DNA of 26,124 nt from a virus (IMGVR_UViG_2698536443_000009:1-26124), one strand, 5' to 3'. Counted from the stretch's first letter, positions 6,279 to 25,305 are shown. Notes: generated from the sequence alone by a model not told the origin. Numbers and translations are program-made.

Positions 6279-7697
6279 ATGCCGATTCAGCAACTTCCGC
6301 TTATGAAAGGTGTCGGCAAAGACTTTCGAAACGCCGACTATATCGACTATCTGCCAGTGAATATGTTGGCTACACCCAAAGAAATCCTCAACAGCAGCGG
6401 ATATCTTCGCTCATTCCCGGGCATTGCCAAACGTTCTGATGTGAACGGTGTATCTCGAGGCGTCGAGTACAACATGGCGCAGAATGCTGTCTATCGTGTG
6501 TGTGGCGGCAAGCTCTACAAAGGCGAAAGCGAAGTCGGTGATGTTGCCGGAAGTGGTCGCGTATCAATGGCGCATGGTCGAACATCACAGGCGGTAGGCG
6601 TTAATGGTCAACTGGTCGAGTATCGCTATGATGGTACGGTTAAAACCGTCTCAAACTGGCCTACAGACAGCGGATTCACGCAGTATGAGTTAGGCTCAGT
6701 CCGCGATATTACGCGCTTACGTGGGCGTTATGCGTGGTCAAAAGACGGAACTGATTCATGGTTTATCACTGACCTTGAAGACGAATCACATCCTGACCGA
6801 TACAGCGCACAATATCGTGCAGAATCGCAGCCTGACGGCATCATCGGCATCGGAACATGGCGAGACTTCATCGTCTGCTTTGGCTCATCGACGATTGAAT
6901 ATTTCTCCCTGACGGGCGCAACCACTGTTGGTGCCGCTTTGTATGTCGCCCAGCCATCGTTGATGGTGCAAAAAGGAATCGCCGGAACTTACTGCAAAAC
7001 GCCGTTTGCTGATTCCTATGCGTTCATCAGCAATCCGGCAACAGGTGCGCCGTCTGTGTATATCATCGGCTCCGGCCAGGTATCACCAATCGCCAGCGCG
7101 AGCATTGAGAAAATTCTCCGCTCCTACACTGCTGATGAACTGGCTGATGGTGTGATGGAGTCTCTGCGATTTGATGCGCATGAGCTGCTGATTATCCATC
7201 TTCCGCGCCATGTTCTCGTGTACGACGCATCTTCAAGCGCCAATGGTCCGCAATGGTGTGTGCTGAAAACAGGCCTGTATGACGATGTGTACCGCGCTAT
7301 CGACTTCATTTACGAAGGCAATCAGATAACGTGCGGCGATAAGCTGGAATCCGTGACCGGGAAACTGCAATTCGATATCAGCAGCCAGTATGACAAGCAG
7401 CAGGAACACCTGCTGTTTACTCCACTCTTCAAAGCAGATAACGCCAGATGCTTTGATCTGGAGGTGGAATCATCGACGGGTGTTGCTCAGTACGCTGACC
7501 GCCTTTTTCTCTCTGCAACCACTGACGGCATAAATTACGGACGTGAGCAGATGATTGAGCAGAATGAACCGTTCATTTACGACAAACGCGTTTTGTGGAA
7601 GCGTGTCGGGCGCATCAGGAAAAATGTCGGCTTCAAACTTCGCGTTATCACGAAGTCACCTGTCACTCTGTCTGGCGCTCAGATAAGGATTGAGTAA
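6279..7697 (+). CDS. Tail hub protein, P22 gp10-like
   Basis: 472 aa, the same length as P22 gp10, located between the gp4-like and gp26-like genes. Identification is by synteny and size. Confidence 0.75.
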
Positions 7698-8650
7698 TGG
7701 CGGATTCGAATCTCAATGTGCCGGTAATCATTCAGGCTACACGGCTCGACACATCAATCCTTCCACGCAATATCTTCTCGCAGTCGTATCTGCTTTACGT
7801 TATCGCACAGGGTACTGATGTTGGTAACGTGGCTAACAAGGCCAACGAAGCAGGGAAGGGGGCTTATGATGCACAGGTGAAGAATGATGAGCAGGATGTC
7901 ACCCTTGCAGACCATGAATCCAGAATTGAAGCTGCTGAAGCAACTCTCATCAATCATGAACATAGAATTGCAGCAGCGGAAAGCACTCTTGCAGAACATG
8001 AAACAAGGATTACGGCTGCTGAAACAGAGCTGGCTGATCACGAGACGCGAATTGCTGCCAATGAATCTGAGTTAGCAAACCATGATGCGCGCATAACTCA
8101 GAATACAACCGATATCGACGCACTTGATACCAGGCTCACAGCGGCAGAGGGAAGTATTTCGACGCTACAAAGCACAGCTGGTGATCACTCAACAAGAATA
8201 TCTGCGCTTGAGTATGCCACCACGCGCAAGAAATCAGAGGTTGTTTACTCAGGGGTATCGGTAACAATTCCGACAGCGCCTACCAACCTTGTTAGTCTGC
8301 TGAAAACGCTCACGCCGTCATCCGGCACGCTGGCACCATTCTTCGACACCGTTAACAACAAGATGGTTGTGTTCAACGAGAACAAAACCTTGTTCTTCAA
8401 GCTGTCGATCGTCGGGACGTGGCCCAGCGGAACCGCCAACAGGTCAATGCAACTAACATTTTCCGGCTCTGTTCCTGACACACTGGTAAGCAGTCGCAAC
8501 TCGGCGACAACGACCGATAACATCCTGTTAGCTACGTTCTTCAGCGTGGATAAAGACGGCTTTCTTGCCACAAATGGCAGCACGTTAACCATTCAGTCAA
8601 ATGGTGCGGCGTTTACTGCCACAACCATCAAGATAATCGCGGAGCAGTAA
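7697..8650 (+). CDS. Tail needle protein, P22 gp26-like, with extended C-terminal domain
   Basis: The N-terminus [43 protein letters not shown]...[14 protein letters not shown] is near-identical in pattern to the P22 gp26 N-terminus. It is followed by coiled-coil heptad repeats and a about 150 aa C-terminal domain absent from P22 gp26 (233 aa). Confidence 0.85.
7901..8110 (+). repeat. Five imperfect tandem 42-nt (14-aa) repeats encoding the coiled-coil core of the tail needle
   Basis: Translated units [14 protein letters not shown] / [14 protein letters not shown] / [14 protein letters not shown] / [14 protein letters not shown] / [14 protein letters not shown], read directly from the ORF. 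Confidence 0.55.
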
Positions 8651-9105
8651 TGATTCAGTTCAAACCAACGCGAAACATCGACCTGATCGAAGCTGTCGGA
8701 AATCACCCTGACATTATTGCCGGAAGCAACAACGGTGATGGATACGACTACAAGCCTGAATGCCGTTACTTTGAGGTTAACGTGTACGGTCAGTTTGGCG
8801 GCATTGTTTACTATCAGGAAATTCAGCCGCTTACATTCGATTGCCACGCCATGTACCTGCCAGAGGTTCGTGGATTCAGCAAGGAAATCGGGCTGGCGTT
8901 CTGGCGATACATTCTGACTAACACCACCGTTCAGTGCGTCACATCGTTCGCTGCGCGCAAATTCCGCCACGGTCAGATGTACTGCGCAATGATTGGCCTT
9001 AAGCGTGTAGGAACCATCAAGAAATACTTCAAAGGCGTGGATGACGTGACGTTTTACAGCGCCACACGCGAAGAACTAATCGACTTCCTGAATCACGGGA
9101 GATAG
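8650..9105 (+). CDS. gp14-like protein (position of P22 gene 14)
   Basis: 151 aa ORF between the tail needle and ejection-protein genes; its ATG overlaps the preceding stop (TAATG). Assignment is by synteny only. Confidence 0.55.
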   Translation: MIQFKPTRNIDLIEAVGNHPDIIAGSNNGDGYDYKPECRYFEVNVYGQFGGIVYYQEIQPLTFDCHAMYLPEVRGFSKEIGLAFWRYILTNTTVQCVTSFAARKFRHGQMYCAMIGLKRVGTIKKYFKGVDDVTFYSATREELIDFLNHGR

Positions 9106-9107
9106 CT

Positions 9108-9803
9108 ATGTTATATGCATTTAAGCTGGGCAGAAAACTGCGCGGCGAGGAACCTTATTGCCCTGAAAAAGGCGGGAAAGGTGGCAGCTCTGATAAAAGC
9201 GCAAAGTATGCCGCAGAAGCTCAGAAGTATGACGCAGACCTGCAAAATAAACAGTGGCAGACGATCATGAAAAACCTTGCTCCGTTCACGCCGCTTGCGG
9301 AGCAGTATGTTAACCAGCTTCAGAATCTTTCCAGTTTAGAAGGACAGGGGCAGGCACTTAATCAGTATTACAACTCTCAGCAGTATAAAGACCTTGCAGG
9401 TCAGGCGCGTTACCAGAGTCTTGCTGCTGCGGAGGCGACGGGAGGACTTGGCTCGACAGCCACAAGCAATCAACTGGCCACGATTGCCCCGACTCTCGGT
9501 CAGTCGTGGTTGTCGAACCAGATGAGCAACTACAACAATCTGGCAAACATTGGCCTTGGTGCGCTGCAAGGTCAGGCGAACGCCGGGCAGACATACGCCA
9601 ACAACATGAGCAGCATTGCGCAGCAAAGCGCAGCTCTTGCCGCTGCTAATGCCAATAAACCATCAGGCCTTCAGACAGCAATTAGCGGCGGAGCTTCAGG
9701 GGCTATGACTGGCGCTGCTCTTGGCTCTATTGTTCCCGGGCTTGGCACTGGATTAGGTGCGGCAATTGGCGGCGGACTTGGCCTGCTTGGCTCGTTGTTT
9801 TAA
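9108..9803 (+). CDS. Ejection (internal head) protein, P22 gp7-like
   Basis: 231 aa (P22 gp7 is 229 aa), first of three consecutive ejection-protein genes, with a Gly/Ala-rich hydrophobic C-terminus. RBS GGGAGA. Confidence 0.7.
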   Translation: MLYAFKLGRKLRGEEPYCPEKGGKGGSSDKSAKYAAEAQKYDADLQNKQWQTIMKNLAPFTPLAEQYVNQLQNLSSLEGQGQALNQYYNSQQYKDLAGQARYQSLAAAEATGGLGSTATSNQLATIAPTLGQSWLSNQMSNYNNLANIGLGALQGQANAGQTYANNMSSIAQQSAALAAANANKPSGLQTAISGGASGAMTGAALGSIVPGLGTGLGAAIGGGLGLLGSLF

Positions 9804-9812
9804 GGGGTAATC

Positions 9813-11201
9813 ATGGCTACTTGGCAAGGATCAAATGGCGGATTGTTGGCTGGTATCGGCGGTGTCAACTCAAACGCTCCGAGCGTAAATGACATCGGCA
9901 ATACGCTTCAGCTTATCAGGCAGAACAATGATATTGAGCGTTCAGGCGCTAACAATGTTGGGCTGACTGCTTTGCAAGGCCTTTCAGGTATTGCGGGGGT
10001 GTTTCAGCAGGAAAAGCAGGCTCAGCGGCAGAAAGAATTTCAGCAGGCATACGCTAATGCTTATGCGTCTGGTGATCGCGGTGCTTTGCGTCAGTTGGCT
10101 ACTCAATATCCAGACCAGATTGAATCCGTTCGTAAAGGCATGGGATTCATTGATGAAGACCAGCGCAATTCTATCGGCACCTTAGCGGCTGGCGCTCGTC
10201 TTGCGGCATCGTCTCCAGAAGCAATGCAATCATGGCTGCAAAACAACGCCAAGGAACTGACTCGCGTCGGTGTTGACCCTAACAACGTTGCTCAGATGTA
10301 TCAGCAGAATCCTTCAGGATTTGGTGAGTTTGTTGATCACCTTGGGATGGCTGCGCTTGGTCCGATTGATTACTTCAATGTTCAGGACAAGATGGCTGGT
10401 CGTGAGATTGATCGCGGAAAACTTGCAGAGACAATCCGCAGCAATCAGGCTGGCGAGGCGCTAACAGCACGAGGCCAGAACATCACGATGCGCGGTCAGG
10501 ACTTATCTGCTTCTACTGCGCGACGCGGGCAGGATTTGGCAATGCAGCGAGCGTCAACAAGAGGAACCGCTGGGAATGATGAGCGTACAGTTCAGTTATC
10601 AGATGGCAGAACTGTAACGGTAGGCGGGAAACTTCACGGCGCTGGGGCTAATGCGTTCTACGAAGGCATCGACAACGAGGGGAATATGGTTCGCGTTCCT
10701 GCCAGTTCAATCGCAGCGCCTGCAACATCGTCTGCATCAGCACAAAACTATGCCATGAAGAAGGATATCGACGCGATCGCAAATGCAGACGCTTCTGCTC
10801 TCGATTTCATGACAGGAATGACAGGCGGTGCAGGTAATCCAGCAATTGGTGCTGATGTTCGCAGCCGATTAACAGGAAAAGAGCAGCGCCAGTTATATAA
10901 CTCAGCACAACGTATTCAGGGCAGAATGCAGAATCAGGGTGTGGCGGCAGCAAGGGACATGGGTGCCAGTGGTATTAACACCGTTGCAGAAGCGAAGATG
11001 TATTTTCAGGGGATGCCGCAGGTTGACTATTCAAGCCCGGAGGCTATGCAGCAGTCGATTCGTGAGATTCAGGAATACACCAACAATTACAACCAACAAT
11101 ATAACGTTAATGTTGGTAAATCTCAGCGGCAGCAATCTCAACCTGCACAGGTATCACAGCCAGCAGCCAGCAGTAACTTTTCTTCACTATGGGGTGATTA
11201 A
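9813..11201 (+). CDS. Ejection protein, P22 gp20-like
   Basis: 462 aa (P22 gp20 is 471 aa), in the syntenic position. RBS AAGGGG. Confidence 0.7.
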
Positions 11202-13198
11202 TGGCTAAAGCATGGAAAGATGTTATCGCCTCTCCACAGTATCAGGCGTTAGCACCAGAACAAAAAGCGCAGGCTCAGGAGCAATACTTCAATGAAGTCG
11301 TGGCCCCGCAAGCCGGAGAAAATGCAGAGCAGGCTAAGCAAGCTTTCTATGCTGCCTATCCATTGCCATCTGTGCAGCAAGTGGAGACACAGCAACCAGT
11401 AGCACAGCAACAACCACAGCAAAGTGGATTTATGTCTGATCTTGGCGAAGCAGTAAAAGAGACTGGTCGCGGACTGGTGCAGGCTGGCGTGAACGTGGCA
11501 AACATACCTGCATCAGTCGCCGATGCTGTAACAAGCGCGGCGGCTTGGGCTGGCGGTAAACTCGGCATTGGCGATGGTACATATCAACCAGCGCCACGAG
11601 TAACAACGCAGGGATTAGAGCAGGACTTTGGCCTTCAGCAAGGTGCGCTGACTCCACAAACGACAGAGGGAAGGGTATTTGCTGAAGCATTGCCTTACCT
11701 CACTCCTGCTGGAGTTGAGAGAGCTGCAACACAGGCACCAACACTTGCTGGTCGAATTGCTCAGGGTGCAACTCGCCTTCTCGCAGAAAACGCAGTTGGA
11801 TCACTTGCTGCAAATAGTGCGAAAGATGATGCGGAAGCACTCGCCACCGATTTAGGCGTTGGTGTGTTGGCTGGCGGTGCTATTAACGCTGCCGGACGTG
11901 GATTAGGTGCTGCTTATCGTGGCGTTCGTGGTGCTATTGCGCCAGAAGCGCAGCAGGCTATCAGATTTGCAGAGCGTGAAGGAGTGCCTCTGCACACCAC
12001 AGACCTGTTACAACCTACTTCCCGCGTCGGAAAAATGGCTCAGACTACAGCAGAAAATATCCCTCTGGCTGGCACAAGCGGAATGAGAGCAACGCAACAG
12101 GAAGCGAGAAGTCAGTTGGTGCAGAGATTTGCCGATAAATTCGGGGAGTATGATCCAGCGGTTGTTATTGACAGCCTTAAAGCGAAAACATCAGGAATTC
12201 GTCGTGCTGCCGGTAATCGACTGGAGCAGGTTCAGAATGCTATGGCTGGAGTAAACATTCAACCTGCGCGAGCAATTCAGCAGATTGATACAGAAATATC
12301 TAACCTGCAGAAGCTTGGTAAGGTTGCTGATAACGAGACTATTTCAAAACTTCAGTCATATCGTGATGAGCTTGTTCGCAATGCTGGTCCTGATGGTCCG
12401 GTCAATCTGGATTTGAAGCAATTAAGCGATCTGCGCAGCCAGTTCAGAATGGACGTGAAGGGTGAGCGACCAGTGTTACCAAACCGTTCCGATGCTGCCA
12501 TTCAGCGAGTTTACAAGGCGATGACCGACGATATCAATGGTGCCATTGGTCAGAATCTTGGCAATGATACTCTTCGTAAATATCAGCAGGCCAATGCCGT
12601 CTACGCTGACGAAGCGGCGAAACTAAAGAATACCAGGCTGAAGAATGTTCTCATGAAAGGCGACCTGACGCCGGAAGTTGTCAACAACATGCTATTCAGC
12701 AAGAACAAATCGGAAATTAAGACTCTGTATAACTCAGTTGGTCGTGTTGGCAGGGCGCAAATGCGCAATGGCATCATTGGAAAGGCGATGGAGAAATCAG
12801 GTGGTTCCCCTGACCAGTTCCTTCGGCAACTTAACATCCTGCAAAACCAGACTGGCATCACATTTAAAGGTCAGGAAGCCGCTTATCTGAAAGGATTGAA
12901 AAACTACCTGCAATCCACGCAACAGGCTGCAAAAGCAGCAGTAACAACACCAACAGGGCAGCAAACCATCCCGTTCATTATCGGGTATGGGACGGCAATG
13001 AACCCGGCGACAACTGGCGCAGCGGTAAGCTACGGACTTCTTACTCGCGCCTATGAGAGCGAGCCATTCAGAAATGCAATGCTCCGAATGGCAAACACAC
13101 CACGCGGATCAACAGCGTTTGAGAAAGCCATGCAGCAGGCGCAAAAGGCCATTAACGCCCTGACTCAGGGTGCCAAGTCTGATGCGTTGTCAGAATAG
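11201..13198 (+). CDS. Ejection protein, P22 gp16-like
   Basis: 665 aa (P22 gp16 is 609 aa), last gene of the ejection trio, with a TAATG overlap to the preceding gene. Confidence 0.7.
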   Translation: MAKAWKDVIASPQYQALAPEQKAQAQEQYFNEVVAPQAGENAEQAKQAFYAAYPLPSVQQVETQQPVAQQQPQQSGFMSDLGEAVKETGRGLVQAGVNVANIPASVADAVTSAAAWAGGKLGIGDGTYQPAPRVTTQGLEQDFGLQQGALTPQTTEGRVFAEALPYLTPAGVERAATQAPTLAGRIAQGATRLLAENAVGSLAANSAKDDAEALATDLGVGVLAGGAINAAGRGLGAAYRGVRGAIAPEAQQAIRFAEREGVPLHTTDLLQPTSRVGKMAQTTAENIPLAGTSGMRATQQEARSQLVQRFADKFGEYDPAVVIDSLKAKTSGIRRAAGNRLEQVQNAMAGVNIQPARAIQQIDTEISNLQKLGKVADNETISKLQSYRDELVRNAGPDGPVNLDLKQLSDLRSQFRMDVKGERPVLPNRSDAAIQRVYKAMTDDINGAIGQNLGNDTLRKYQQANAVYADEAAKLKNTRLKNVLMKGDLTPEVVNNMLFSKNKSEIKTLYNSVGRVGRAQMRNGIIGKAMEKSGGSPDQFLRQLNILQNQTGITFKGQEAAYLKGLKNYLQSTQQAAKAAVTTPTGQQTIPFIIGYGTAMNPATTGAAVSYGLLTRAYESEPFRNAMLRMANTPRGSTAFEKAMQQAQKAINALTQGAKSDALSE

Positions 13199-13267
13199 CT
13201 TCGCAAACACCAGGAACGTGCAAAAACCAAATATGTAGAACGCAATATTCATCATATCTCTTTGCAT
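13190..13267 (-). CDS. Candidate small hydrophobic peptide (25 aa, MQRDMMNIAFYIFGFCTFLVFAKLF) downstream of mnt
   Basis: On the minus strand, GGAGG (13276-13272) lies 4 nt before an ATG at 13267; the ORF runs to a TGA at 13192-13190. It is too short for the ORF track. It occupies the position where P22 carries sieA/hkcC. Confidence 0.25.
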   Translation of the reverse strand: MQRDMMNIAFYIFGFCTFLVFAKLF

Positions 13268-13287
13268 AAATCCTCCGTAATGGATGG

Positions 13288-13551
13288 TTAGTTGCTGTCT
13301 TTTTTATATAGCTCCTTTAGCGTGTCAAAGACAATTTTCTTAACCATATCGGATTGTTGTTCTGCCATACGCTCTGCATCGTCAATGTAAACTGATGCAG
13401 AGCTTTGTTTATCCAGTGATTCTTCAATCGCTGCAATTATCTCTGAGTTCAGAGACCTGTTATTCATCTTCGCACGCTGTTTAATCTTCGCGTGGAGTTC
13501 ATGCGGAAGTCTCAAGTGAAACTGCGCCTCGTCGTATTTGCTGTACATCAT
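13288..13551 (-). CDS. mnt: Mnt repressor (Arc/MetJ ribbon-helix-helix family), P22 immI region
   Basis: From the MMYSKYDE start, the protein aligns along its length with P22 Mnt: FHLRLPHELHAKIKQRAKMNNRSLNSEIIAAIEESLDK versus FNFRMPMEVREKLKFRAEANGRSMNSELLQIVQDALSK, and DDAERMAEQQSDMVKKIVFDTLKELYKK versus NDAERLADEQSELVKKMVFDTLKDLYKK. The track ORF is extended upstream to 13632; the start at 13551 (or 13548) has a GGTGAGG RBS. Confidence 0.85.
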   Translation of the reverse strand: MMYSKYDEAQFHLRLPHELHAKIKQRAKMNNRSLNSEIIAAIEESLDKQSSASVYIDDAERMAEQQSDMVKKIVFDTLKELYKKDSN

Positions 13552-13962
13552 CAATGCCTCACCTAATGGGTGGAATGGCATCGTAAAACCTACTGTACAA
13601 ATCAACAATCGTACCGTTTCGGTATGTAACAAACGCCAACCGTAGCCATGCTGCGGCGATTCCTTGTATCTGGAGCAAATTAAATGACAGATATTATAAA
13701 TAGGAATTTTTATTTAATAATATTTGAAAATTAAAATCATGGACGATAGGAATAAAAGTAGTACTTGTCATTTTTAAGTGACGCATTAAACGCATAAAGC
13801 ATATGTCTGTTGATCAAGATTCTTACTTGTTGTAAAATAATTGTCCTGTTCATGTTGCATGGTTTTAAAATGAATAGAAGATTATTTTTCAAAACAATTG
13901 CATCTTTGTCTGCAGTCATTCCGTTTTCTTCAATATCTAAATTTTCAAACAGGATGACTAAT
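13552..13962. promoter_or_regulatory. AT-rich control region between mnt and the tailspike gene (expected Pmnt, possible operator remnants and tailspike promoter)
   Basis: About 410 bp of AT-rich non-coding sequence with several inverted repeats (CACC-N6-GGTG near the mnt start; AAATGACA ... TGTCATTT separated by about 75 bp). P22 has arc and ant here; they are absent. Confidence 0.35.
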
Positions 13963-16194
13963 ATGCCTGATATAACTCCAAATGTTGTAATTGGGATGCC
14001 TTCGCAACTCTTCACTATGGCTCGCTCTTTTAAAGCGGTAGCCAATGGCAAAATTTATATAGGAAAAATTGACACTGACCCGGTAAATCCTGAAAACCAA
14101 ATTCAGGTTTATGTAGAGAACGAAGACGGTTCTCACGTTCCTGTTTCGCAACCAATCATCATTAACGCTGCTGGTTATCCGGTATATAACGGACAGATTG
14201 CCAAATTCGTAACCGTGCAAGGCCATTCAATGGCTGTTTATGATGCATACGGTGCGCAGCAGTTCTATTTTCCTAATGTGCTGAAGTATGACCCTGATCA
14301 GTTTAGAACAATAATAGAGTCAAATTATGGTGCGGGGCATGTTGGTACTTCGTCTGGACTAACAATTCAGCAGTTGATTGATTCTTTTATTGTAGTTACA
14401 CCACAAATGTTTGGTGAATCTGGAAAGTCAAATGATTCAACAATAGCAATTAACTCTGCATTGGACTATCTTGAGTCTCTAGGTGGTGGGATTATTTATC
14501 TTCCTCCAGGTAAATATTACGTCAGCATTGAAAAATCAGGTCATAATTATTCATGCATTAGAGTTCCCGCTAACGTAACTTTCTGTGGGGCTGGTGCTGG
14601 ATCTACCATCATTCAGAGACTACCCACTGAGAGGGGGATGGATGGTGTCTTGATAACAAATAAATATTATGATACTAGAACTGGCTATGGAGCTGCCGGC
14701 AATATTGTTTTTAGAGATTTTACAATCACTGACGGTAGCGCAACCCCAACAAGGGATTATGGTGATTTAATCGGTTTAGGTCATAGCAAAAATGTAACTA
14801 TAGAGAGAGTGGAGCAAGGGAGACATGATCAACATTTTGTTGATATTGCAGGATCAACCGATGTAACAGTCAAAGACTGTCACGGGTCGTGTGATATGGA
14901 GGTGGACCATATTACGTGGAATTGTGATATACAGATTGATTCCGCTCAACCAAACGCAATACTTGGAATTAAAGTTGATGGCACACCTAGCACAAATATA
15001 ATTATTAGCGGAAATAAACTTCAAAACAAAAGCTCAAATTTGCAAATTGAAATAGGACATGCTGGGGGAGTATATAGAAATATTATTATTTCTGATAACA
15101 TACTTGATGGGGCATATTTTCAAGACTCATCAGTTATTGGTTGTAACTCAACAACAGCTACCATTATCAATTTGAGCATAAATAACAATCAAATACTAAC
15201 AAATAATATAAATTCAAGAGGTGTTAATCTTTATTGTCTTGGGAATAACGAAAAACTTATTGGTATTTCTTTTAGTAATAATATTATAAGAGGTTATGCT
15301 AGGATTGGTGCATGGTTTGGGACTAATGGTAATTATACTGGAACGAAGTTTCCTCATGATGATGTAACAATAATAGGAAATAAATTCTTTCTAACATCGC
15401 CTTCATCTGGAACATTTGTTCAAGGTGTTGTTGTTGCTGGTTGGCGATCTGTTGTATGTAGTGATAATATAGTTGAGATATATTCTGATAATGAATTTTC
15501 TTCAGGGTGTTCGGTGATATCAGTTTGGAAAAATGGTAGTGCTAAGGTAAGTGATAACAATATCTCTAGAACATGTGGTGCAACACCTGACGTATCATCT
15601 TCAGTTATTTCGTTGATACTAATCACCCCTGAACCTTCCAGCATTGATAAGGCGTCATCAATCCATATTAATGGAAATGCTTTCTTTGGAGATATTCCTA
15701 GATATGCAATAAATCACAAAGAAGGGTGGATTGAAGGATATGACATGATAGTTGTATCAGGCTCTCATGGTAGATTTAACCAAACATTTATAGGCACGCA
15801 AGGGGCGCATATGTATGAAACGTACCCAATTTCTGATATGACAAATTTCAATCAACCAGTGTCAATAAATGGTCAATATAGAAGGCAGGTATACAGAGGA
15901 AATATTTACAAGTCAACGTTCAATTTGAAGAAAAATGGAAGTGAAACAAGTGGGGCTAAGGTGGATTTTTTTATATCTAATGAACGCTCAAAAATAACAG
16001 GTTCTGAACAATTGAATGTAGCATATATATCTCCAACTGAGTCTGTGGGAATCACCGCTACATCAATAGATTTGTCATCAGGAACACTTAATATAATTAC
16101 TGGAACAAATGGTGTATCTATGAATTTAAATCCATCCAATAAGCAGCCTGAAATAAGAAATAGCGCGTATATAAGCGCAAGGATTTCCATTTAA
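13963..16194 (+). CDS. Tailspike protein: P22 gp9-like head-binding N-terminal domain plus divergent receptor-binding domain
   Basis: [97 protein letters not shown]...[10 protein letters not shown] matches the P22 tailspike N-terminal domain closely. AGGA RBS 8 nt upstream of the ATG at 13963. The rest is AT-rich and unrelated to P22 gp9. The track ORF starts further upstream at 13810. Confidence 0.9.
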
Positions 16195-16985
16195 AATTCA
16201 GAAATTAGCCATAAAAAGCATGAAGTCTATCATCCAAGTGTCAATCGATCGATGACTTGCGGTGGTTGATGAGACAAAACTGAGACACACAAAGCTTTGC
16301 ACTGGATTGCAAGGCTTTGTGCTCTTCGATAGTGGTTAAGGTGGATCACTCCACCTTTTCATCAAGCCAGTCTGCCCACCACTGCATCATTTCTCTGCGC
16401 TTAATGTAGCGGATGCCTCACTATCACATAGTGATGGTTCATTACTGCTTTGTAGAATTGATAGAGAACTGAGGATAAAAAGATATCCCAAAACCCCAAA
16501 ATCTCATCTTTAGGATTTGCAGAAAGGGAGGCGTGAACAGATACCTGCGCATGAAGACGGAACTAGTCCAGATGTGATATTTGTGGTGATCACATACATC
16601 ATTAACGATGCTCGTTATGGTGAGTTTGATGACTACCCGCTGAAGTGAAAATTGTGTTGTGTACCAAATTGCGTACCAAACTAAAATCACAAATCATGAA
16701 ACCCTTGTTCATGGCGGTTCTCAGGGGTGTTGCGCGTAATCGTGAAACAAAAAGGTAGATTGTTGCTTACCGTCATTCATCATTAGGTTAAATCCGTTAT
16801 TTCTGCTGTCTGCCAGAGTATCAAATATCACCGTGCTAATCAGCTTTAGCGCCACAATTTGGCAGCGAGTGGCAACAGATCATGTCAGATAAAAATGAGA
16901 GGGTAGTCACATTTTCTTGCACTTTATTCCAGCCAGTTCATAAGTATTTCCGTAAAAAGAACAGCTATTTGAAACTCCTGAGGGT

Positions 16986-18158
16986 TTGCTGTTGAAACGC
17001 CGTCTTATTATTGCTGCTTCTTTGTTCGTTTTTAACTTATCGTCTGGTTTTGCGGCGGAAAACATTCCTTTTTCACCTCAGCCTCCAGAGATTCATGCCG
17101 GGTCCTGGGTATTGATGGATTACACCACCGGTCAGATCCTCACCGCGGGTAATGAGCATCAACAGCGCAATCCCGCCAGCCTGACAAAGCTGATGACGGG
17201 TTATGTCGTGGATCGCGCTATCGATAGTCATCGCATTACGCCAGACGATATTGTCACCGTGGGGCGCGATGCGTGGGCGAAAGATAATCCGGTGTTTGTC
17301 GGTTCTTCACTGATGTTTTTGAAAGAGGGCGATCGCGTATCGGTACGTGATTTAAGCCGTGGTTTAATTGTGGATTCCGGAAATGACGCTTGTGTTGCTC
17401 TGGCTGACTATATTGCCGGTGGGCAACGGCAGTTTGTTGAAATGATGAACAACTATGCCGAGAAGCTGCATCTCAAGGATACGCATTTTGAAACAGTGCA
17501 TGGTCTGGATGCACCTGGCCAGCATAGCTCGGCTTATGATTTAGCTGTGCTTTCTCGTGCTATCATCCACGGCGAGCCCGAGTTTTATCATATGTACAGT
17601 GAGAAAAGTCTCACCTGGAACGGTATCACCCAGCAAAACCGTAACGGGTTGTTGTGGGATAAAACCATGAATGTTGACGGCCTGAAAACGGGTCATACTT
17701 CTGGTGCCGGGTTTAATCTCATTGCTTCGGCTGTAGATGGGCAGCGTCGTCTCATTGCAGTGGTAATGGGGGCTGACAGTGCAAAAGGTCGTGAGGAAGA
17801 GGCAAGAAAATTACTGCGTTGGGGGCAACAAAACTTTACTACGGTGCAAATTTTGCACCGTGGGAAAAAGGTCGGAACGGAACGCATCTGGTATGGCGAT
17901 AAAGAAAATATCGACCTGGGAACGGAACAAGAGTTCTGGATGGTGCTACCGAAAGCCGAAATTCCACATATCAAAGCCAAATATACCCTTGATGGTAAAG
18001 AACTCACCGCGCCAATTAGCGCCCATCAGCGGGTAGGGGAAATTGAACTTTACGACCGTGATAAACAGGTGGCGCACTGGCCGCTGGTTACCCTGGAATC
18101 TGTCGGGGAAGGCAGCATGTTTTCTCGCCTGAGTGATTATTTCCACCATAAGGCCTGA
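16986..18158 (+). CDS. dacD: D-alanyl-D-alanine carboxypeptidase DacD (PBP6b)
   Basis: Signal peptide, SLTKLMT (SxxK active-site motif), SGND and KTGHT motifs typical of class A low-molecular-weight PBPs. Length and sequence fit E. coli DacD. Start is TTG at 16986 or the TTG at 16992 (giving 388 aa). Confidence 0.93.
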   Translation: MLLKRRLIIAASLFVFNLSSGFAAENIPFSPQPPEIHAGSWVLMDYTTGQILTAGNEHQQRNPASLTKLMTGYVVDRAIDSHRITPDDIVTVGRDAWAKDNPVFVGSSLMFLKEGDRVSVRDLSRGLIVDSGNDACVALADYIAGGQRQFVEMMNNYAEKLHLKDTHFETVHGLDAPGQHSSAYDLAVLSRAIIHGEPEFYHMYSEKSLTWNGITQQNRNGLLWDKTMNVDGLKTGHTSGAGFNLIASAVDGQRRLIAVVMGADSAKGREEEARKLLRWGQQNFTTVQILHRGKKVGTERIWYGDKENIDLGTEQEFWMVLPKAEIPHIKAKYTLDGKELTAPISAHQRVGEIELYDRDKQVAHWPLVTLESVGEGSMFSRLSDYFHHKA

Positions 18159-18242
18159 CCTTTCTTTTGCAGCAGACTGGCAGGAGTGCGAGTCTGCTCG
18201 CATAATCAACACTCATTCCTTGTGGTTTTAATTTTGCAACTA

Positions 18243-18262
18243 TACTGTATATAAAAACAGTG
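18243..18262 (+). promoter_or_regulatory. LexA box (SOS operator) upstream of sbmC
   Basis: taCTGTATATAAAAACAGtg fits the CTG-N10-CAG LexA consensus and ends about 15 nt before the sbmC start. sbmC is a known SOS-inducible gene. Confidence 0.65.
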
Positions 18263-18276
18263 TCAATGGAGGCGTC

Positions 18277-18750
18277 ATGAACTACGAGATTAAGCAGGAA
18301 GAGAAACGTACCGTTGCAGGTTTCCATCTCGTTGGCCCGTGGGAACAGACGGTAAAGAAAGGCTTTGAGCAGTTGATGATGTGGGTAGATAGCAAAAATA
18401 TTGTGCCGAAGGAGTGGGTTGCTGTCTATTACGACAATCCAGATGAAACACCCGCCGAAAAATTACGCTGCGACACCGTCGTGACGGTGCCGGGTTACTT
18501 TACGCTTCCCGAAAACAGTGAGGGCGTCATTCTGACAGAAATTACAGGTGGTCAGTATGCGGTGGCGGTAGCTCGTGTAGTCGGTGATGATTTTGCTAAA
18601 CCCTGGTATCAGTTCTTTAATAGTCTCTTGCAGGACAGTGCTTATGAAATGTTACCAAAGCCCTGCTTCGAGGTTTATTTGAACAATGGCGCGGAAGATG
18701 GGTACTGGGATATCGAAATGTATGTTGCGGTGCAGCCAAAACATCACTAA
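18277..18750 (+). CDS. sbmC: DNA gyrase inhibitor SbmC (GyrI)
   Basis: 157 aa, sequence and length consistent with E. coli SbmC, directly downstream of dacD as in E. coli K-12. Confidence 0.92.
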
Positions 18751-18947
18751 TTCATCTCAGGGCGGTGTGTTAACGCGATGACCACTCTTTTTTTTGAAAG
18801 CGAAAAGAGTAAGATGCGCCTTTCAATTTTTTCGCTCCTGCCGGGAAATTACACTGTTCCCGGTTTGTCCGTCGGATAATTCAGAGGCGCGCCTTCTGGC
18901 CGACAGATGAGTTATGAGCGCTTTTAATCTCATTACGGAGTTTCTGC

Positions 18948-20006
18948 GTGCGTGCCGATAAGTCATTAAGCCCGTTTGAAATCCGGGTATACCGCCATTA
19001 CCGCATTGTGCATGGTACTCGGGTCGCGCTGGCATTCCTGCTCACTTTTCTCATTATCCGCCTGTTTACTATCCCGGAAAGCACCTGGCCGCTGGTCACC
19101 ATGGTGGTGATTATGGGGCCAATCTCGTTCTGGGGTAACGTTGTCCCTCGCGCCTTTGAGCGTATTGGCGGTACGGTGTTGGGTTCGATTTTAGGTCTTA
19201 TCGCTCTGCAACTGGAGTTAATCTCGTTACCGCTGATGTTAGTCTGGTGCGCGGCGGCCATGTTCCTTTGCGGTTGGCTGGCGCTGGGCAAGAAACCGTA
19301 TCAAGGTTTATTGATTGGGGTGACGCTGGCAATTGTTGTGGGTTCCCCGACAGGTGAAATTGATACGGCGTTATGGCGAAGCGGCGATGTGATCCTCGGC
19401 TCTTTACTGGCAATGTTGTTTACCGGTATCTGGCCACAACGGGCGTTCATCCACTGGCGCATTCAACTGGCGAAAAGTCTGACCGAGTATAATCGGGTCT
19501 ATCAATCTGCATTCTCACCGAACTTACTCGAACGCCCACGTCTGGAAAGCCATCTACAAAAACTCCTGACCGATGCCGTGAAAATGCGTGGACTGATTGC
19601 GCCCGCCAGCAAAGAAACCCGTATTCCAAAATCGATATATGAAGGTATCCAGACCATTAACCGCAATCTGGTTTGTATGCTGGAGTTGCAAATCAATGCA
19701 TACTGGGCCACGCGCCCCAGCCATTTCGTGTTATTGAACGCGCAAAAACTTCGTGATACCCAGCACATGATGCAGCAAATACTGCTGAGCCTTGTTCATG
19801 CGCTGTACGAAGGTAATCCGCAGCCGGTTTTTGCCAATACGGAAAAATTGAACGATGCTGTGGAAGAGCTGCGTCAGTTGCTCAATAACCACCATGACCT
19901 GAAGGTTGTGGAAACACCAATCTATGGTTATGTGTGGCTGAACATGGAAACGGCGCATCAGCTTGAGTTGCTATCGAATCTGATTTGCCGGGCCTTGCGC
20001 AAATAA
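18948..20006 (+). CDS. yeeA: Inner membrane protein YeeA (FUSC-like putative exporter family)
   Basis: 352 aa with multiple hydrophobic helices, GTG start preceded by a GGAG RBS, in the conserved dacD-sbmC-yeeA-yeeX order. Confidence 0.88.
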   Translation: MRADKSLSPFEIRVYRHYRIVHGTRVALAFLLTFLIIRLFTIPESTWPLVTMVVIMGPISFWGNVVPRAFERIGGTVLGSILGLIALQLELISLPLMLVWCAAAMFLCGWLALGKKPYQGLLIGVTLAIVVGSPTGEIDTALWRSGDVILGSLLAMLFTGIWPQRAFIHWRIQLAKSLTEYNRVYQSAFSPNLLERPRLESHLQKLLTDAVKMRGLIAPASKETRIPKSIYEGIQTINRNLVCMLELQINAYWATRPSHFVLLNAQKLRDTQHMMQQILLSLVHALYEGNPQPVFANTEKLNDAVEELRQLLNNHHDLKVVETPIYGYVWLNMETAHQLELLSNLICRALRK

Positions 20007-20177
20007 TTCCTGAACTTCAGAATCATCTTGCTGCTGCTTCGATTCAGCAAGGATAAAGGGTATGATAGTGAAAAGGGATAAAAGCATTGTCATCTGCGGC
20101 AGCTATGAGTAATGTTGGCCCTAACGAATAGCGGTTGCTTAAACGAATCCGACTCTCACATTATCAGGGGTATAAAA

Positions 20178-20507
20178 ATGGAAACTACCAAGCCTTCATT
20201 CCAGGACGTACTGGAATTTGTTCGTCTGTTCCGTCGTAAGAACAAACTGCAACGTGAAATTCAGGACGTTGAGAAAAAGATCCGTGACAACCAGAAGCGC
20301 GTCCTGCTGCTGGACAACCTGAGCGATTACATCAAGCCGGGGATGAGCGTTGAAGCAATCCAGGGCATCATCGCCAGCATGAAAGGTGACTATGAAGATC
20401 GCGTTGACGATTACATCATCAAAAATGCCGAGCTCTCCAAAGAACGCCGCGATATCTCCAAAAAGCTGAAAGCTATGGGCGAAATGAAAAACGGCGAAGC
20501 GAAGTAA
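20178..20507 (+). CDS. yeeX: YeeX (DUF496 family protein), 109 aa
   Basis: [41 protein letters not shown]... The internal ATG at 20178 is the likely true start; the track ORF from 20112 adds a 22-aa extension. Confidence 0.88.
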
Positions 20508-20521
20508 TTCCCGTTTTATTC

Positions 20522-20548
20522 AATGAGGGTTGCCCGGCAACCCTCATT
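20522..20548 (+). terminator. Strong 12-bp hairpin after yeeX (AATGAGGGTTGC ccg GCAACCCTCATT)
   Basis: Perfect 12-bp inverted repeat with a 3-nt loop, 15 nt after the yeeX stop, followed by a moderately U-rich tract (GCTCATTGATTCTTATCTG). Confidence 0.45.
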
Positions 20549-20607
20549 GCTCATTGATTCTTATCTGTGTATCACCGTCATCATTCTCATCCGAGAACCA
20601 ATCGAAA

Positions 20608-20964
20608 TTAACAACAGCCTTCTTCTGTATGCAGCAAGGCAAAAAGTTCTGTAACTCCATTGTTATTAACTGCACTGGTTACTAACACGTTGTGCGCTCC
20701 AGCTTCCCGTAACCAACTTTTCACCAAAGATATTTGTTCCATGCTGGCTAAATCTGCTTTGGTTACTACTCCAATGACCGGGTGATTCATGGCCCGGTAG
20801 GGCGTTTTTACCTCTAATTCCTGCTTCAGCGCTGAGATTCCTGCTTGTTGCCAGAAAAGCAGGCACCTGCCGTCTGAACGGTATCGATCCGGAAGCGTAT
20901 CTGCGCCATATTCTGAGCATACTGCCGGAATGGCCCTCCAACCGTGTTGACGAACTCCTGCCAT
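20608..20964 (-). pseudogene. EutP/PduV-like GTPase C-terminal fragment (yoeF-like remnant); only about 20608..20830 is protein-like
   Basis: The C-terminal part of the ORF (HPVIGVVTKADLASMEQISLVKSWLREAGAHNVLVTSAVNNNGVTELFALL) resembles the C-terminal region of EutP/PduV-type proteins. The N-terminal part is the antisense of the IS66-like fragment and is W/R/C-rich, so the gene is truncated. Confidence 0.45.
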
Positions 20965-21020
20965 GGAACGTAGTTCTCACCAATAAATAAGCGTCAATAC
21001 GGTGCTCCGTTGACGCTTAC
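20840..21020 (+). mobile_element. IS66-family insertion sequence remnant: transposase C-terminal fragment plus terminal inverted repeat
   Basis: The + strand frame ends ...CRLNGIDPEAYLRHILSILPEWPSNRVDELLPWNVVLTNK*, resembling IS66-family transposase C-termini (LPWN motif). The following 30 bp end in ...CGCTTAC, whose reverse complement GTAAGCG... matches the IS66-family terminal repeat start as I recall it. There is no intact transposase upstream. Confidence 0.5.
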
Positions 21021-21210
21021 TTTAATCCGTTTTCTGAGCTTAGATTTTTCTGTTCCTACCCAGACCGTGGATTTGGAATTCATTTTTTGTCAGGTCAATG
21101 CTAATCGTTAAAACGGCCATAACGCACCTCCACTGGAAGGTTTATCAGTAATATCCTACCGTTGCTTCATGGTCGGGGCGTCCATTCCATTATTATCGGT
21201 TTTCCTTTCT

Positions 21211-21248
21211 GTTTATAAATGAAAACGCCAGCTGTATTCAGGCTGGCG
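21211..21248 (-). terminator. Intrinsic terminator downstream of yeeW (minus strand)
   Basis: Minus-strand hairpin CGCCAGC cugaauaca GCUGGCG (21248-21226) followed by UUUUCAUUUAU. Confidence 0.5.
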
Positions 21249-21404
21249 TCAGGAGAAATGAAGCCTGTTGAGTGAGATTCACCGGTTCTGGTGCAGAAGC
21301 TGCAGATGGCGCAGGGTAAGGACATCTTCTCTTGCCTGCTTAATACAGGACAACAGTGCTGTTTCTGTGGTTAATGGCACTATACCCTGTATCACTGCAT
21401 TGTC

Positions 21405-21599
21405 TTACAGCAACTGGTGAGGGCTGGCATAAGTTGCCGGTGTTTCGGTAGAGTCACGGTCATCCACCACGCGGAGTGAATAACCGTTTTCAGCGGCCTT
21501 ATTAATCAGTTCAGTGATATTAACACCATCAATGTCAACGACAATGTGCCCCATATCCAGCGCCTGTACGTTAACGCTGTCGGCTTCCAGTGTCATCAT
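21405..21599 (-). CDS. yeeW: YeeW-family small protein (64 aa), CP4-44-like element
   Basis: 64 aa ORF overlapping the stop of the cbtA-like gene; matches the size and position of E. coli yeeW, the last gene of the CP4-44 toxin-antitoxin block. Confidence 0.8.
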   Translation of the reverse strand: MMTLEADSVNVQALDMGHIVVDIDGVNITELINKAAENGYSLRVVDDRDSTETPATYASPHQLL

Positions 21600-21970
21600 T
21601 TCGCCTCCGGATACTTACCCAGGGTAATGTTATTTACCGTTCTGTAATTGTCGCGGGTCATCAGGCCGGTCGCCCTGCGAGCCCGGAGGATATCGATGCT
21701 GTTTATTAACTGAGAGCGGGTACAGGCGCTGAATCCCGGCTGGTCGGTACGCACCAGCGCGTATTTTTCCACGAGAAAGTTCACCGCATCACACAGTGAA
21801 ATGCCTGCCTCAATATGCTGCTCAATCACACGTTCATCGGCAAAAGGTGTGTCATTCAGTGTGAGGCCATAGTGCTGGTCCAGCAGTCGGGACAGCAGTA
21901 TCTGCCAGATTTCAACAGGAGACGGGCGAGAACTGGCCGCCTGCCCGGGTAATACAGGTAATGTTTTCAT
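21596..21970 (-). CDS. cbtA: CbtA (YeeV) family toxin, inhibitor of FtsZ/MreB polymerisation
   Basis: 124 aa, the same length as E. coli YeeV, directly downstream of the cognate antitoxin gene in the conserved yeeT-yeeU-yeeV-yeeW order. Confidence 0.88.
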   Translation of the reverse strand: MKTLPVLPGQAASSRPSPVEIWQILLSRLLDQHYGLTLNDTPFADERVIEQHIEAGISLCDAVNFLVEKYALVRTDQPGFSACTRSQLINSIDILRARRATGLMTRDNYRTVNNITLGKYPEAK

Positions 21971-22058
21971 ACTGAAGATTTTCCTGATATGCAGATATAA
22001 AAATGGAAAAGTGGCGTGGTGAAAACACCAGGCCGTAGCAGAAGGCTATTCTGGAGAG

Positions 22059-22427
22059 TTAATTTTTCATTTCGGGCGTCGGATAAACAGCCAGATAAAC
22101 GTAACCACAACTGCTGAGGGTATCGGCTTTGCAGGTCAGCCCTTTTGCATACAGCGTGACGGTATGCTGATGGCGGGGATTCAGTTCACCGCTGGTGAGC
22201 ATGAGTTCCAGTTGTTTCATCAGCAGCGGAAAGGCCTGGTCCAGGTGGTACGCATCTGCATCGCTGAACAGGCCTCTGATACCGGCGCGGTCGGCAAGGT
22301 AATGCAACCGGTTACCCTCCTGCACCAGACGTGCCCCGAAACAGGGCGTCACGGTGCAGGGCAGCCCCCACCAGGGGCGGTCGTGATTGTCGTCGGGAAG
22401 TGTTGTCCCGGGGAGTGTGTCTGACAC
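22059..22427 (-). CDS. cbeA: CbeA (YeeU) family antitoxin
   Basis: 122 aa beginning MSDTLPGTTLPDDNHDRPWWGLP..., consistent with the YeeU/YfjZ/YafW antitoxin family; adjacent to the toxin gene. Confidence 0.88.
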   Translation of the reverse strand: MSDTLPGTTLPDDNHDRPWWGLPCTVTPCFGARLVQEGNRLHYLADRAGIRGLFSDADAYHLDQAFPLLMKQLELMLTSGELNPRHQHTVTLYAKGLTCKADTLSSCGYVYLAVYPTPEMKN

Positions 22428-22500
22428 GATAAAATCCTTACAGAAAATCGGCTAAGAATGGTCCGGTAGTGGCGATAATTCTGCTCATCAGAATTCCCAC

Positions 22501-22722
22501 TCAGTTCAGGGTGACGCTCATCAGCCGGACATACGGACCAAAACTGTCCTTACGGCGTTCAGCAAACACGGCCAGCACACCGGGAATATCCTGCACTTCA
22601 CGACCGGTATACGCTTCAGCACTGCCGTGCCAGCGGTATTTACCGGTACAGAACGGAAAAAGACGGGATGTCGGATGTTGTTGGTGAATACGCATGGCTT
22701 CACCACGGGTGATAATTTTCAT
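22501..22722 (-). CDS. yeeT: YeeT family protein (DUF987), 73 aa
   Basis: 73 aa ORF immediately upstream of the antitoxin gene, the conserved position of yeeT/ykfF-type genes. Confidence 0.8.
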   Translation of the reverse strand: MKIITRGEAMRIHQQHPTSRLFPFCTGKYRWHGSAEAYTGREVQDIPGVLAVFAERRKDSFGPYVRLMSVTLN

Positions 22723-22784
22723 AATGGGATACCTCTGAAGACAGAAGATAAAAGTGAAAACAGGTGTGATGTGGTTGTGAAGGG

Positions 22785-23276
22785 TTAAAGCAGACCATGT
22801 TCGGCAAAGGAGAAAACCTGGTTGCCACCGACTATCAGATGGTCCGGCACCCGGATATCCACCAGGCCCAGTGCCTGTACCAGACGTTCGGTGATAAGCC
22901 GGTCTGCCTTACTGGGTGTGACTTCACCGGACGGGTGATTGTGTGCCAGTACCACGGCAGCGGCATTGTGGTACAGGGCGCGTTTAATCACTTCCCGGGG
23001 ATGGACTTCCGTGCGGTTGATGGTGCCGGTGAAGAGGGTTTCACCGGCAATCAGCTGATTCTGGTTGTTCAGATACAGCACCCGGAATTCTTCACGCTCC
23101 AGTCCCGCCATGTTCAGAATCAGCCATTCCCGTGCTGCACGGGTGGAGGTGAAGGCCACGCCGGGTTCATGAAGATGGCGGTCCAGGGTTTTCAGGGCCC
23201 GTTGAATGAGGCTGCGCTCGCCGGGCGTCATCTCTCCGGGCAGAAAGGAAAGTTGTTGCATTGTGCTTCTCTCCAT
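22785..23276 (-). CDS. yeeS: RadC-like JAB-domain protein (YeeS/YkfG/YfjY family)
   Basis: Contains the JAMM-type motif HNHPSG plus conserved Glu/Asp context (VLAHNHPSGEVTPSKADRLITERL), typical of RadC-like proteins of CP4 elements. Confidence 0.88.
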   Translation of the reverse strand: MERSTMQQLSFLPGEMTPGERSLIQRALKTLDRHLHEPGVAFTSTRAAREWLILNMAGLEREEFRVLYLNNQNQLIAGETLFTGTINRTEVHPREVIKRALYHNAAAVVLAHNHPSGEVTPSKADRLITERLVQALGLVDIRVPDHLIVGGNQVFSFAEHGLL

Positions 23277-23756
23277 TCAGTCGATGATGCGCATAATGGC
23301 GCTGCATTCCGGATGCTGCAGGGCGTAATCCCGCAACCGGTAATAATGGACCGTCATGGCATAATTCTCCGTACGACAGGCATGATGACTGTACGTCATC
23401 AGACAGGCGGCAATACCGGCGGCTTCCGGGCTCATTTCTGCGCGGTTACCGTTCATGGCATTGAACAGTACCCATGTTTCGTCATCATCGTCATCCGGTT
23501 CGGGTGCCATAAATGCCCCGCCGTTGTTCAGGGTGTACAGATTCCAGATACCACCGCAGTAGTCTTCGCACAGACGGTCCATCCAGCCGAAGACACGGGG
23601 CTCCAGGGTCACCCACTGTGGAATGAGGCCAAAATGCTGCGGCCAGAAGCTGATGCGCTGTTCATCAGGGACGAGGCTGGCAACCAACTGAGGCGGATTA
23701 TTCTCTGGTGTTGTAGCTGAATAAATTGTGGGGGTATTCTGAGAAACGGTTTTCAT
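23277..23756 (-). CDS. Antirestriction protein, KlcA/ArdB-like (YfjX/YafX family)
   Basis: 159 aa with an acidic patch (PEPDDDDDETW) and conserved tryptophans, in the position occupied by antirestriction genes in CP4-6/CP4-57-type elements, directly upstream of the RadC-like gene. Confidence 0.75.
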   Translation of the reverse strand: MKTVSQNTPTIYSATTPENNPPQLVASLVPDEQRISFWPQHFGLIPQWVTLEPRVFGWMDRLCEDYCGGIWNLYTLNNGGAFMAPEPDDDDDETWVLFNAMNGNRAEMSPEAAGIAACLMTYSHHACRTENYAMTVHYYRLRDYALQHPECSAIMRIID

Positions 23757-23837
23757 GAGATAACTCCTTAAATAACAAATAAATGTGTGTTTTTCAGGAA
23801 CGAAAGCTGAATGATTCCCTCACTCAGGGAAACGGCA

Positions 23838-24659: not shown

Positions 24660-24704
24660 ACTTTGCTCCTTATCGGTGGTTAAGATTTACTGGTGCAATA
24701 AATG

Positions 24705-24736
24705 AAAAAAGCCGCGTCTCCCGGAGAAGACGCGGC
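24705..24736 (-). terminator. Intrinsic terminator downstream of the two-gene cargo operon (minus strand)
   Basis: Minus-strand hairpin GCCGCGUCU ucuccggg AGACGCGGC (9-bp stem) followed by UUUUUU (plus-strand A6 at 24705-24710). Confidence 0.6.
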
Positions 24737-25290: not shown

Positions 25291-25305
25291 GATAGACTCC
25301 TTAAA

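Follow-up and report, generated by a model that had tools for sequence, protein, structure and literature searches.

What would a homologue of the phage P22 repressor Mnt control in a prophage region in which arc and ant, its partners in the immunity-I (immI) region of P22, are missing? This question is raised by the interval between the last late gene and the tailspike gene of IMGVR_UViG_2698536443_000009:1-26124, a viral sequence of 26,124 nucleotides that was analysed over its full length and is referred to here as the window. The prophage in the window is P22-like (Lederbergvirus-type) and is represented by its late half, with the structural genes transcribed rightward and a gene 16-type gene as the last of them; the early half lies outside the window, and absences reported for the window cover the late half. 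An earlier interpretation of the same DNA (the sequence-only reading) had described the region as an immI region reduced to an orphan mnt, with Mnt being either a relic or a repressor rewired to another promoter. The comparisons reported here indicate that the region is probably the mnt-only 'ant moron' of P22-like prophages, joined by recombination to a tailspike cassette, with an operator through which Mnt would act in cis.

The sequence-only reading was right that mnt encodes a clear Mnt homologue: the protein shares 50% identity with P22 Mnt over 78 amino acids (E 1.6e-23), its N-terminal domain (residues 7–49) matches the Pfam family Arc (PF03869; 54.8 bits, cut-off 20.4), its C-terminal helix (residues 57–82) matches Repressor_Mnt (PF11423; 52.7 bits, cut-off 20.9), and the PDB entries 1MNT and 1QEY are matched at E 5e-19 and 1.7e-8, respectively. 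A second in-frame ATG at 13551 is missing from most alleles. The claim that the canonical targets are missing was likewise borne out, as P22 Arc and Ant gave no tblastn match in the window, no open reading frame (ORF) that could be an arc divergent from mnt fits between 13552 and 13963, and neither Omnt nor Oarc of P22 is present in the window at up to three mismatches, including the spacer in which a search for Omnt had been proposed. For sar, no Rfam family reached its gathering score anywhere in the window, the presence of a sar model in the library being unconfirmed, and no rightward promoter of Pant quality reaches 9/12 consensus positions in 13552–13700. The complete genome of Shigella phage Sf101, which has the same mnt allele, contains no Arc or Ant homologue anywhere.

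The best operator candidate, which the sequence-only reading had overlooked, is the palindrome TACCGTTTCGGTA at 13612–13624. Its centre lies 67–70 bp from the mnt ATG, compared with 66 bp for P22 Omnt and 71 bp for the L-type site; as annotated for P22, the promoters Pmnt and Pant, Oarc and the mnt operator are all found no further than 75 bp from the start of mnt, and the operator abuts the −35 hexamer of Pmnt. The hexamers of the putative Pmnt of the window are at the same distances from the mnt ATG as those of the annotated P22 Pmnt and are kept among 48 unique upstream sequences, in which conservation is highest in the palindrome, in both promoter-like hexamers and in the leader where it adjoins the Shine–Dalgarno (SD) sequence. 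When 11 mnt genes were placed in a common register, the P22-related alleles showed a palindrome centred 66–71 bp from the ATG and then TTGnnn-17-TAnnAT, the exception being the P22-like mnt of CUS-3, which is sited behind a second mnt gene. The predicted operator is present in one copy each in the window, the Sf101 genome and the genome of Escherichia phage JEP4; second copies are absent from all three, and no one-mismatch site is intergenic near a promoter, the numbers of such sites being close to chance (the window has 7 such sites with 2.8 expected from shuffles, Sf101 has 4 with 4.3 expected and JEP4 has 5 with 3.8 expected).

The sequence-only reading had instead offered as a possible operator a CACC-N6-GGTG repeat at the mnt ribosome-binding site. 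This repeat (CACC at 13560–13563 and GGTG at 13569–13572) is indeed conserved in its stem, with a variable loop, but its spacer is 5 nt rather than 6 nt and it lies within the mnt leader, abutting the SD sequence, where it may represent a hairpin kept at the 5′ end of the mnt mRNA. Repeats at the same place in other alleles read CACT/AGTG (P22; contig L005, around 2774–2788) and CACTT/AAGTG (phage L; contig L095, upstream of 2492).

Beta-strand residues 6, 8 and 10 of P22 Mnt are said, from the work of Knight and Sauer, to read the bases of the DNA. Among the sequences compared, the predicted palindrome shifts between Mnt classes in step with these residues: H-N-R pairs with AGGTCCACNGTGGACCT in P22, epsilon34, UPF_BP1 and three metagenomic immI units (L221, L227 and L244), Q-N-R pairs with AAGACCACNGTGGTCTT in phages L, ST160 and Gally, with the same half-site in Proteus phage Brookers, and Q-H-R pairs with TACCGAAACGGTA in the window and JEP4 and with TACCGAAATGGTA, in which one arm position is mismatched, in Sf101 and Enterobacteria phage IME10. 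The symmetric operator variants of the Q-H-R class are TACCG..CGGTA and TACCA..TGGTA, and a mixed form also occurs. The Q-H-R and Q-N-R classes appear to occur only in ant-less arrangements and yet to keep matched operators, and because of this the selected target of Mnt would most likely be its own site, that is, cis control at the mnt/tailspike junction, rather than an antirepressor. In a lysogen, Mnt expressed from Pmnt would bind as a tetramer to the predicted 17-bp site, the centre of which is about 45 bp upstream of the putative mnt transcript start; binding would autoregulate Pmnt, and the bound repressor would cover the stretch immediately to the left of the ancestral start of the tailspike gene.

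Mnt of a P22 prophage represses ant on incoming genomes, and a stand-alone Mnt could similarly act in trans, silencing Pant of superinfecting or co-resident P22-like phages that share its operator while its local site serves autoregulation only. Such trans-acting immunity, which would fit both the purifying selection on mnt described below and the lack of a visible local promoter target, is considered unlikely, and so is its consequence that the lysogen is shielded from antirepressor-driven induction. All of the complete immI units examined carry a P22-type H-N-R Mnt with its operator or a Mnt of an unrelated family, and the Q-H-R and Q-N-R classes have no known cognate ant. Moreover, at least about 90 loci among the matches listed in a pattern scan of viral contigs carry a TACCRTTTYGGTA site beside mnt, and in none of them is an antirepressor gene found on the operator side. 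We therefore favour the cis role over repression of foreign ant genes.

Several points nevertheless weigh against cis control through this operator. The putative Pmnt matches the consensus at only 7/12 positions, for which reason a simple promoter scan misses it, and a palindrome with 5-bp arms arises in 12% of cases when the 85-bp segment is shuffled, so that the weight rests on position, conservation and the pairing with the protein rather than on the palindrome alone. Operator, promoter and transcript start are all inferred from position. As the loci counted above are the matches listed in the scan, an ant gene under this operator is possible. Finally, no repressible rightward promoter that would account for a benefit of cis control was found at the operator: none reaching 9/12 overlaps it in the window, in Sf101 or in phage L.

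The suggestion that Mnt may be a relic, a decaying and functionless leftover of a deleted immI region, could draw on the absence of the canonical targets and on the phage L genome paper, which names a remnant as one option (PMC8022706), as well as on the nonsense mutation carried by one contig. The polymorphism of the gene contradicts it. The ratio of nonsynonymous to synonymous polymorphism (pN/pS) is 0.137 (pN 0.012 and pS 0.091; 47 unique full-length alleles), and the reading frame is intact in all full-length gap-free copies but one; this single copy, with an internal stop at codon 32, is on one contig that was labelled both L087 and L181. Because of this ratio, and because the palindrome, the promoter hexamers and the leader are the most conserved upstream columns, the data argue for a working gene under purifying selection. 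In lineages lacking ant, the operator has changed in concert with the recognition residues, and two contigs have a related mnt module alongside a full immI unit (see below). Decay of a useless gene is thus very unlikely.

The layout of the region is ordinary, common and already published. Neither arc nor ant is found in any of the 80 IMG/VR contigs bearing this Mnt allele (95–100% identity), and in 60 of these the tailspike ATG is 121 bp from mnt. The mnt-only layout is also seen in Sf101 and IME10 with the same allele and in Gally, ST160, L and Brookers with other alleles, and about one fifth of complete Escherichia coli genomes (1040 of 5426) match part of 13200–14000, most of the matches listed falling on an 'Arc family DNA-binding protein' adjoining a tailspike. 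A variable 'ant moron' was described by Villafane et al. (2008), with ST64T, ST104 and Para1 holding only mnt and a gene whose function is unknown (PMC2629481), and the phage L genome paper reported an mnt-only region and offered a new function or a remnant as the alternatives (PMC8022706). The window has the single leftward mnt between gene 16 and the tailspike gene, with the conserved tailspike upstream sequence at its right, that characterizes an mnt-only ant moron.

Of the sequence-only description of the region as immI reduced to an orphan mnt, the presence of mnt alone stands, whereas the reduction is doubtful, because this Mnt class was not seen with a cognate arc or ant at any of the loci listed and because a closely related mnt coexists with immI in contigs L117 and L162. 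In these contigs an mnt-arc-ant unit, full or partial, is located to the left, and between it and the tailspike gene stands a JEP4-type mnt with a TACCG operator, beside the tailspike and convergent with the ant-side genes. Both contigs (L117 at 7300–10420) are CUS-3-like and contain up to three Mnt-like genes, two of them beside an Arc-like gene and a P22-type ant, the third, JEP4-type gene being between a second ant-like gene of 270 amino acids and the tailspike gene. The positions of the features of the window are collected in Table 1.

Table 1. Features of the interval from the gene 16-type gene to the tailspike gene, with the grounds on which each was assigned
Feature	Position	Strand	Basis
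Gene 16-type DNA ejection protein, 665 amino acids	11201..13198	+	ORF map; last late-operon gene ahead of the mnt region
mnt, 86-amino-acid ribbon-helix-helix repressor with Mnt C-terminal tetramerisation helix	13288..13548	-	Homology, Pfam, PDB
mnt 5′ leader, SD GAGG (13557-13560, + strand CCTC) abutting a 4-bp inverted repeat	13557..13572	-	Comparison
Putative Pmnt, -35 TTGTTG (13608..13603), 17-bp spacer, -10 TACGAT (13585..13580)	13580..13608	-	Position, conservation
Predicted Mnt operator, 17 bp, core palindrome TACCGTTTCGGTA, abutting the Pmnt -35	13610..13626	.	Position, comparison
Conserved P22-like tailspike upstream sequence, with SD GGAG (13672-13675)	13639..13683	+	Sequence matches
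Vestigial tailspike start ATGACAGATATTAT (13684-13697) opening a 16-codon ORF MTDIINRNFYLIIFEN	13684..13734	+	Comparison with tailspike genes
Leader, AT-rich (26% GC), that arrived with the new tailspike module and has a sigma-70-like promoter	13698..13869	+	Promoter scan, comparison
In-frame N-terminal tailspike extension, 31 codons, twin-arginine/signal-peptide-like	13870..13962	+	Coding-type conservation
Tailspike, 743 amino acids, P22-type head-binding domain and receptor-binding part	13963..16194	+	Pfam Head_binding, 219 bits

The gap between mnt and the tailspike ATG had been described as an AT-rich spacer of about 410 bp. The length is correct (411 bp), but only 13698–13962 is AT-rich (26–28% GC), the left 147 bp having 42–44% GC and being conserved regulatory and boundary DNA; the approximately 280 bp of the gap beyond the operator are not an operator field but boundary sequence, the start of a displaced gene and an AT-rich module. 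The segment upstream of the vestigial start matches P22, epsilon34, Emek and CUS-3 at 94–100% and is annotated as 'boundary sequence bsq1' in CUS-3. Next come 14 nt that correspond to the beginning of a P22-type tailspike gene, and homology to ordinary tailspikes ends after 13697. The 'small peptide' of the sequence-only reading (13684–13734) is this vestigial tailspike start and is not conserved in length; as a conserved peptide the 16-codon ORF was rejected, since the JEP4-type haplotype has a 21-codon reading. The inverted repeat that had been flagged as a further operator candidate, AAATGACA (13682–13689) and TGTCATTT (13766–13773), is present but is at chance level and partly unconserved: at least one inverted pair of 8-mers occurs in 88% of shuffles, the TGTCATTT arm is missing in the JEP4-type haplotype and the AAATGACA arm is the start-codon context of the vestigial tailspike gene.

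The same junction, 14–15 nt into the tailspike gene, holds HNH-endonuclease cassettes in 12 of the 80 contigs, consisting of three different leftward genes (164–179 amino acids), each followed by a fresh tailspike start, and this points to the 5′ end of the tailspike gene as a putative fixed crossover or homing site. HNH insertions between mnt and the tailspike gene were noted in L009, L032, L034–L036, L044, L045, L048, L073, L077 and L084, and Kapi1 is annotated likewise. A derivation of the AT-rich segment from a decayed HNH endonuclease was considered and rejected, as three HNH proteins of related loci gave a best E of 0.37 against 13681–13990 (tblastn).

The AT-rich module contains a sigma-70-like promoter directed towards the tailspike gene, with TTGATC (13810–13815) and TAAAAT (13833–13838) separated by 17 bp and matching the consensus at 9/12 positions. 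Among 15 unique sequences the hexamers are invariant and the spacer varies in sequence at constant length, and this promoter suggests that the tailspike may be expressed independently of the late operon. The module is found in 44 of the 5426 complete E. coli genomes, where it is never annotated as coding, in JEP4 and in about 30 viral or metagenomic contigs. On its left it may have an orphan L-type mnt, the mnt of the window or a complete immI unit, and in a diverged E. albertii-type form it directly follows gene 16, with no mnt; the module therefore belongs to the tailspike and not to Mnt. In 13150–14150 the Rfam families gave only noise at E up to 10, and no significant RNA fold was found (z-scores of 0.10 for the leader and −0.88 for the minus strand of the AT-rich part). 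Small ORFs on the minus strand of the AT-rich part were dismissed as a gene, the reading of 54 amino acids in one haplotype being frameshifted in others.

These properties bear on the proposal that Mnt was rewired to control a tailspike-proximal promoter, or the transcript of the small peptide, within the AT-rich spacer through the flagged repeats. The rightward promoter is conserved, and Mnt is always the left neighbour of the tailspike gene, as such a proposal would expect; but the flagged 8-bp repeat has neither significance nor conservation, the AT-rich part contains no operator-like site, and the module stands behind three different left contexts, including no mnt at all in the E. albertii type, and behind two Mnt specificity classes. 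The majority of contigs with this Mnt allele do not have the module. The predicted operator is at the ancestral position, about 190 bp from the 13810–13838 promoter, the only good one directed rightward, which travels with the tailspike module and has no operator-like site nearby. Rewiring thus finds no support in these data and is the least probable of the explanations weighed here, below even a decayed Mnt.

A separate matter is the tailspike frame itself, which is open from 13870 through the extension and then continues as MPDIT. The extension contains the SD sequence AGGA (13951–13954) of the canonical tailspike start, and in JEP4-type and E. albertii-type copies a stop codon stands directly before its ATG, which is replaced by GTG in six loci. 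The 15 nucleotide variants (15 protein variants) fall into two clades that differ by 23–27% in protein sequence; indels are absent from the frame in all of them, whereas the upstream DNA around the extension shows indels or is unalignable. The pN/pS of the extension is 0.41 in frame versus 2.5 and 0.95 in the other frames, with 0.11 for the head-binding domain, and the extension is fused to at least nine different C-terminal receptor-binding modules. Further copies are at 4001–4093 of L217 and 3001–3093 of L219–L246; no further copy was found in species-representative genomes, and among the 50%-cluster representatives the 150 top-scoring head-binding proteins all lack it, their alignments starting at about the canonical Met. 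Gene callers leave the extension out in nearly all cases. On balance, its translation is judged more probable than not.

As read from the sequences, N-R-R-(L/S)-F-F-K is invariant in the 15 protein variants apart from N2D, and by inspection the part after the twin-arginine motif has an uncharged stretch of 15 residues, a Pro at −6 and SIS/SLS (small-x-small) before K/N/S. Curated profiles for twin-arginine translocation (Tat) signals in Pfam and NCBIfam gave no match at E up to 10 with the peptide alone or up to 1 with the long protein. Export of an extended tailspike by the Tat pathway is possible. A fuller proposal, that the extension is translated from the 13810–13838 promoter to give a long Tat-type isoform beside the virion form starting at 13963, and that this isoform is exported as a folded trimer to the periplasm of the lysogen or of the infected cell, is tentative and rather doubtful. 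If it is true, a periplasmic tailspike could trim or bind O-antigen, with receptor destruction, superinfection exclusion or an aid to release as the outcome, and the gene would be a phage counterpart, possibly an ancestor, of Tat-exported tailspike-fold enzymes such as WceF; the orphan Mnt would have no part in this. Two environmental ORFs of 74 amino acids (L247, 3001–3225; L248, 985–1209) begin with a very similar leader, MNRRSFFKNITTLIATIPFVGL, followed by an unrelated remainder, and judged by this likeness leaders of this type are not confined to tailspikes. An imperfect inverted repeat of 13 nt (13914–13926/13947–13959) pairs extension codons 16–19 with the SD sequence AGGA of the canonical start; the consensus fold of this stem is weak (−3.4 kcal/mol), with one fully compensatory pair between the two clades. 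Of all the features of the region, only the extension and the promoter ahead of it may be new, and they are unconnected with Mnt.

On the left of the region, the homologue of the gene 16-type gene in E. coli OHT76-1 is annotated as an ejection protein of the P22-gp16 family. On the right, the tailspike matches the Sf6 and P22 tailspikes and the head domain of WceF in the PDB, and the prophage ends within about 800 bp past it (16195–16985), with no integrase or tRNA at that end and no tRNA gene found in the window. Host genes follow from 16986 to 26124, beginning with a D-alanyl-D-alanine carboxypeptidase-like (DacD-like) ORF and a SbmC/GyrI-like ORF, followed by others. In two complete E. coli genomes, mnt-tailspike segments of about 99% identity are truncated prophage remnants at another site, beside intS and tRNA-Arg.

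The orphan mnt as such changes little, since mnt-only regions are common and have been described. What is gained is a concrete operator and promoter prediction for a Mnt class with different recognition residues, and matched operators in ant-less Mnt lineages bear on the question posed by phage L, that of the role of Mnt where ant is missing. The analysis of the spacer also indicates that tailspike cassettes are swapped at a fixed junction 14–15 nt into the gene, and it brings to light a tailspike extension that is unannotated, conserved and provided with its own promoter; if real, this extension would amount to a novel use of a tailspike by prophages.

In comparison with known systems, the window resembles L, ST64T, ST104, ST160 and Gally in having a lone leftward mnt between gene 16 and the tailspike gene and no arc, ant or sar (PMC2629481, PMC8022706), and, like the mnt-only phages of the L, ST160 and Gally group, it keeps the palindrome and Pmnt beside the conserved tailspike upstream sequence. 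The L-type phages differ in their Q-N-R residues and palindrome AAGACCACGGTGGTCTT, whereas the window has Q-H-R and TACCGTTTCGGTA; they also have one or two additional small genes separating mnt from gene 16, where the window has none, and their tailspike ATG is 135–146 bp from mnt, without the AT-rich insert. Sf101 and IME10 have the same Mnt allele as the window (96.5–97.7% at the amino-acid level), with mnt directly after gene 16, and the same promoter-operator block, in which one palindrome arm position is different; their tailspike is 121 bp from mnt, whereas in the window 278 additional bp follow the initial 14 nt of that start. JEP4 (MT740315) is the only deposited phage with the spacer of the window (91% identity over 13690–13970), and it shares the operator and the N-terminal third of Mnt, whereas the C-terminal part of Mnt differs (63.5% identity over the whole protein), a C2-like repressor / Rha / KilA block is present at its left and its tailspike has a different receptor domain. 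With immI of P22 (mnt, Pmnt/Pant, Omnt, Oarc, arc, sar and ant) the window shares the homology of Mnt and the geometry of the mnt ATG, Pmnt and operator, although it has no arc, sar, ant or promoter of Pant quality and its operator has a different sequence.

For the long tailspike frame, the comparison is with WceF of Pantoea stewartii (PDB 6TGF), in which a Tat signal precedes a P22-like head domain and a trimeric beta-helix glycanase; it is encoded by a chromosomal gene of an exopolysaccharide cluster, its 28-amino-acid Tat signal was assigned without an export assay and a phage origin has been suggested (PMC7949094). Whereas the gene of the window is a prophage tailspike gene that keeps a canonical internal start with its own SD sequence, and its leader is recognized by motif only, its head domain matches 6tgf at E 7.9e-8, and the long frame would share the order of WceF: a twin-arginine-type leader, a head-binding-type domain and a tailspike body.

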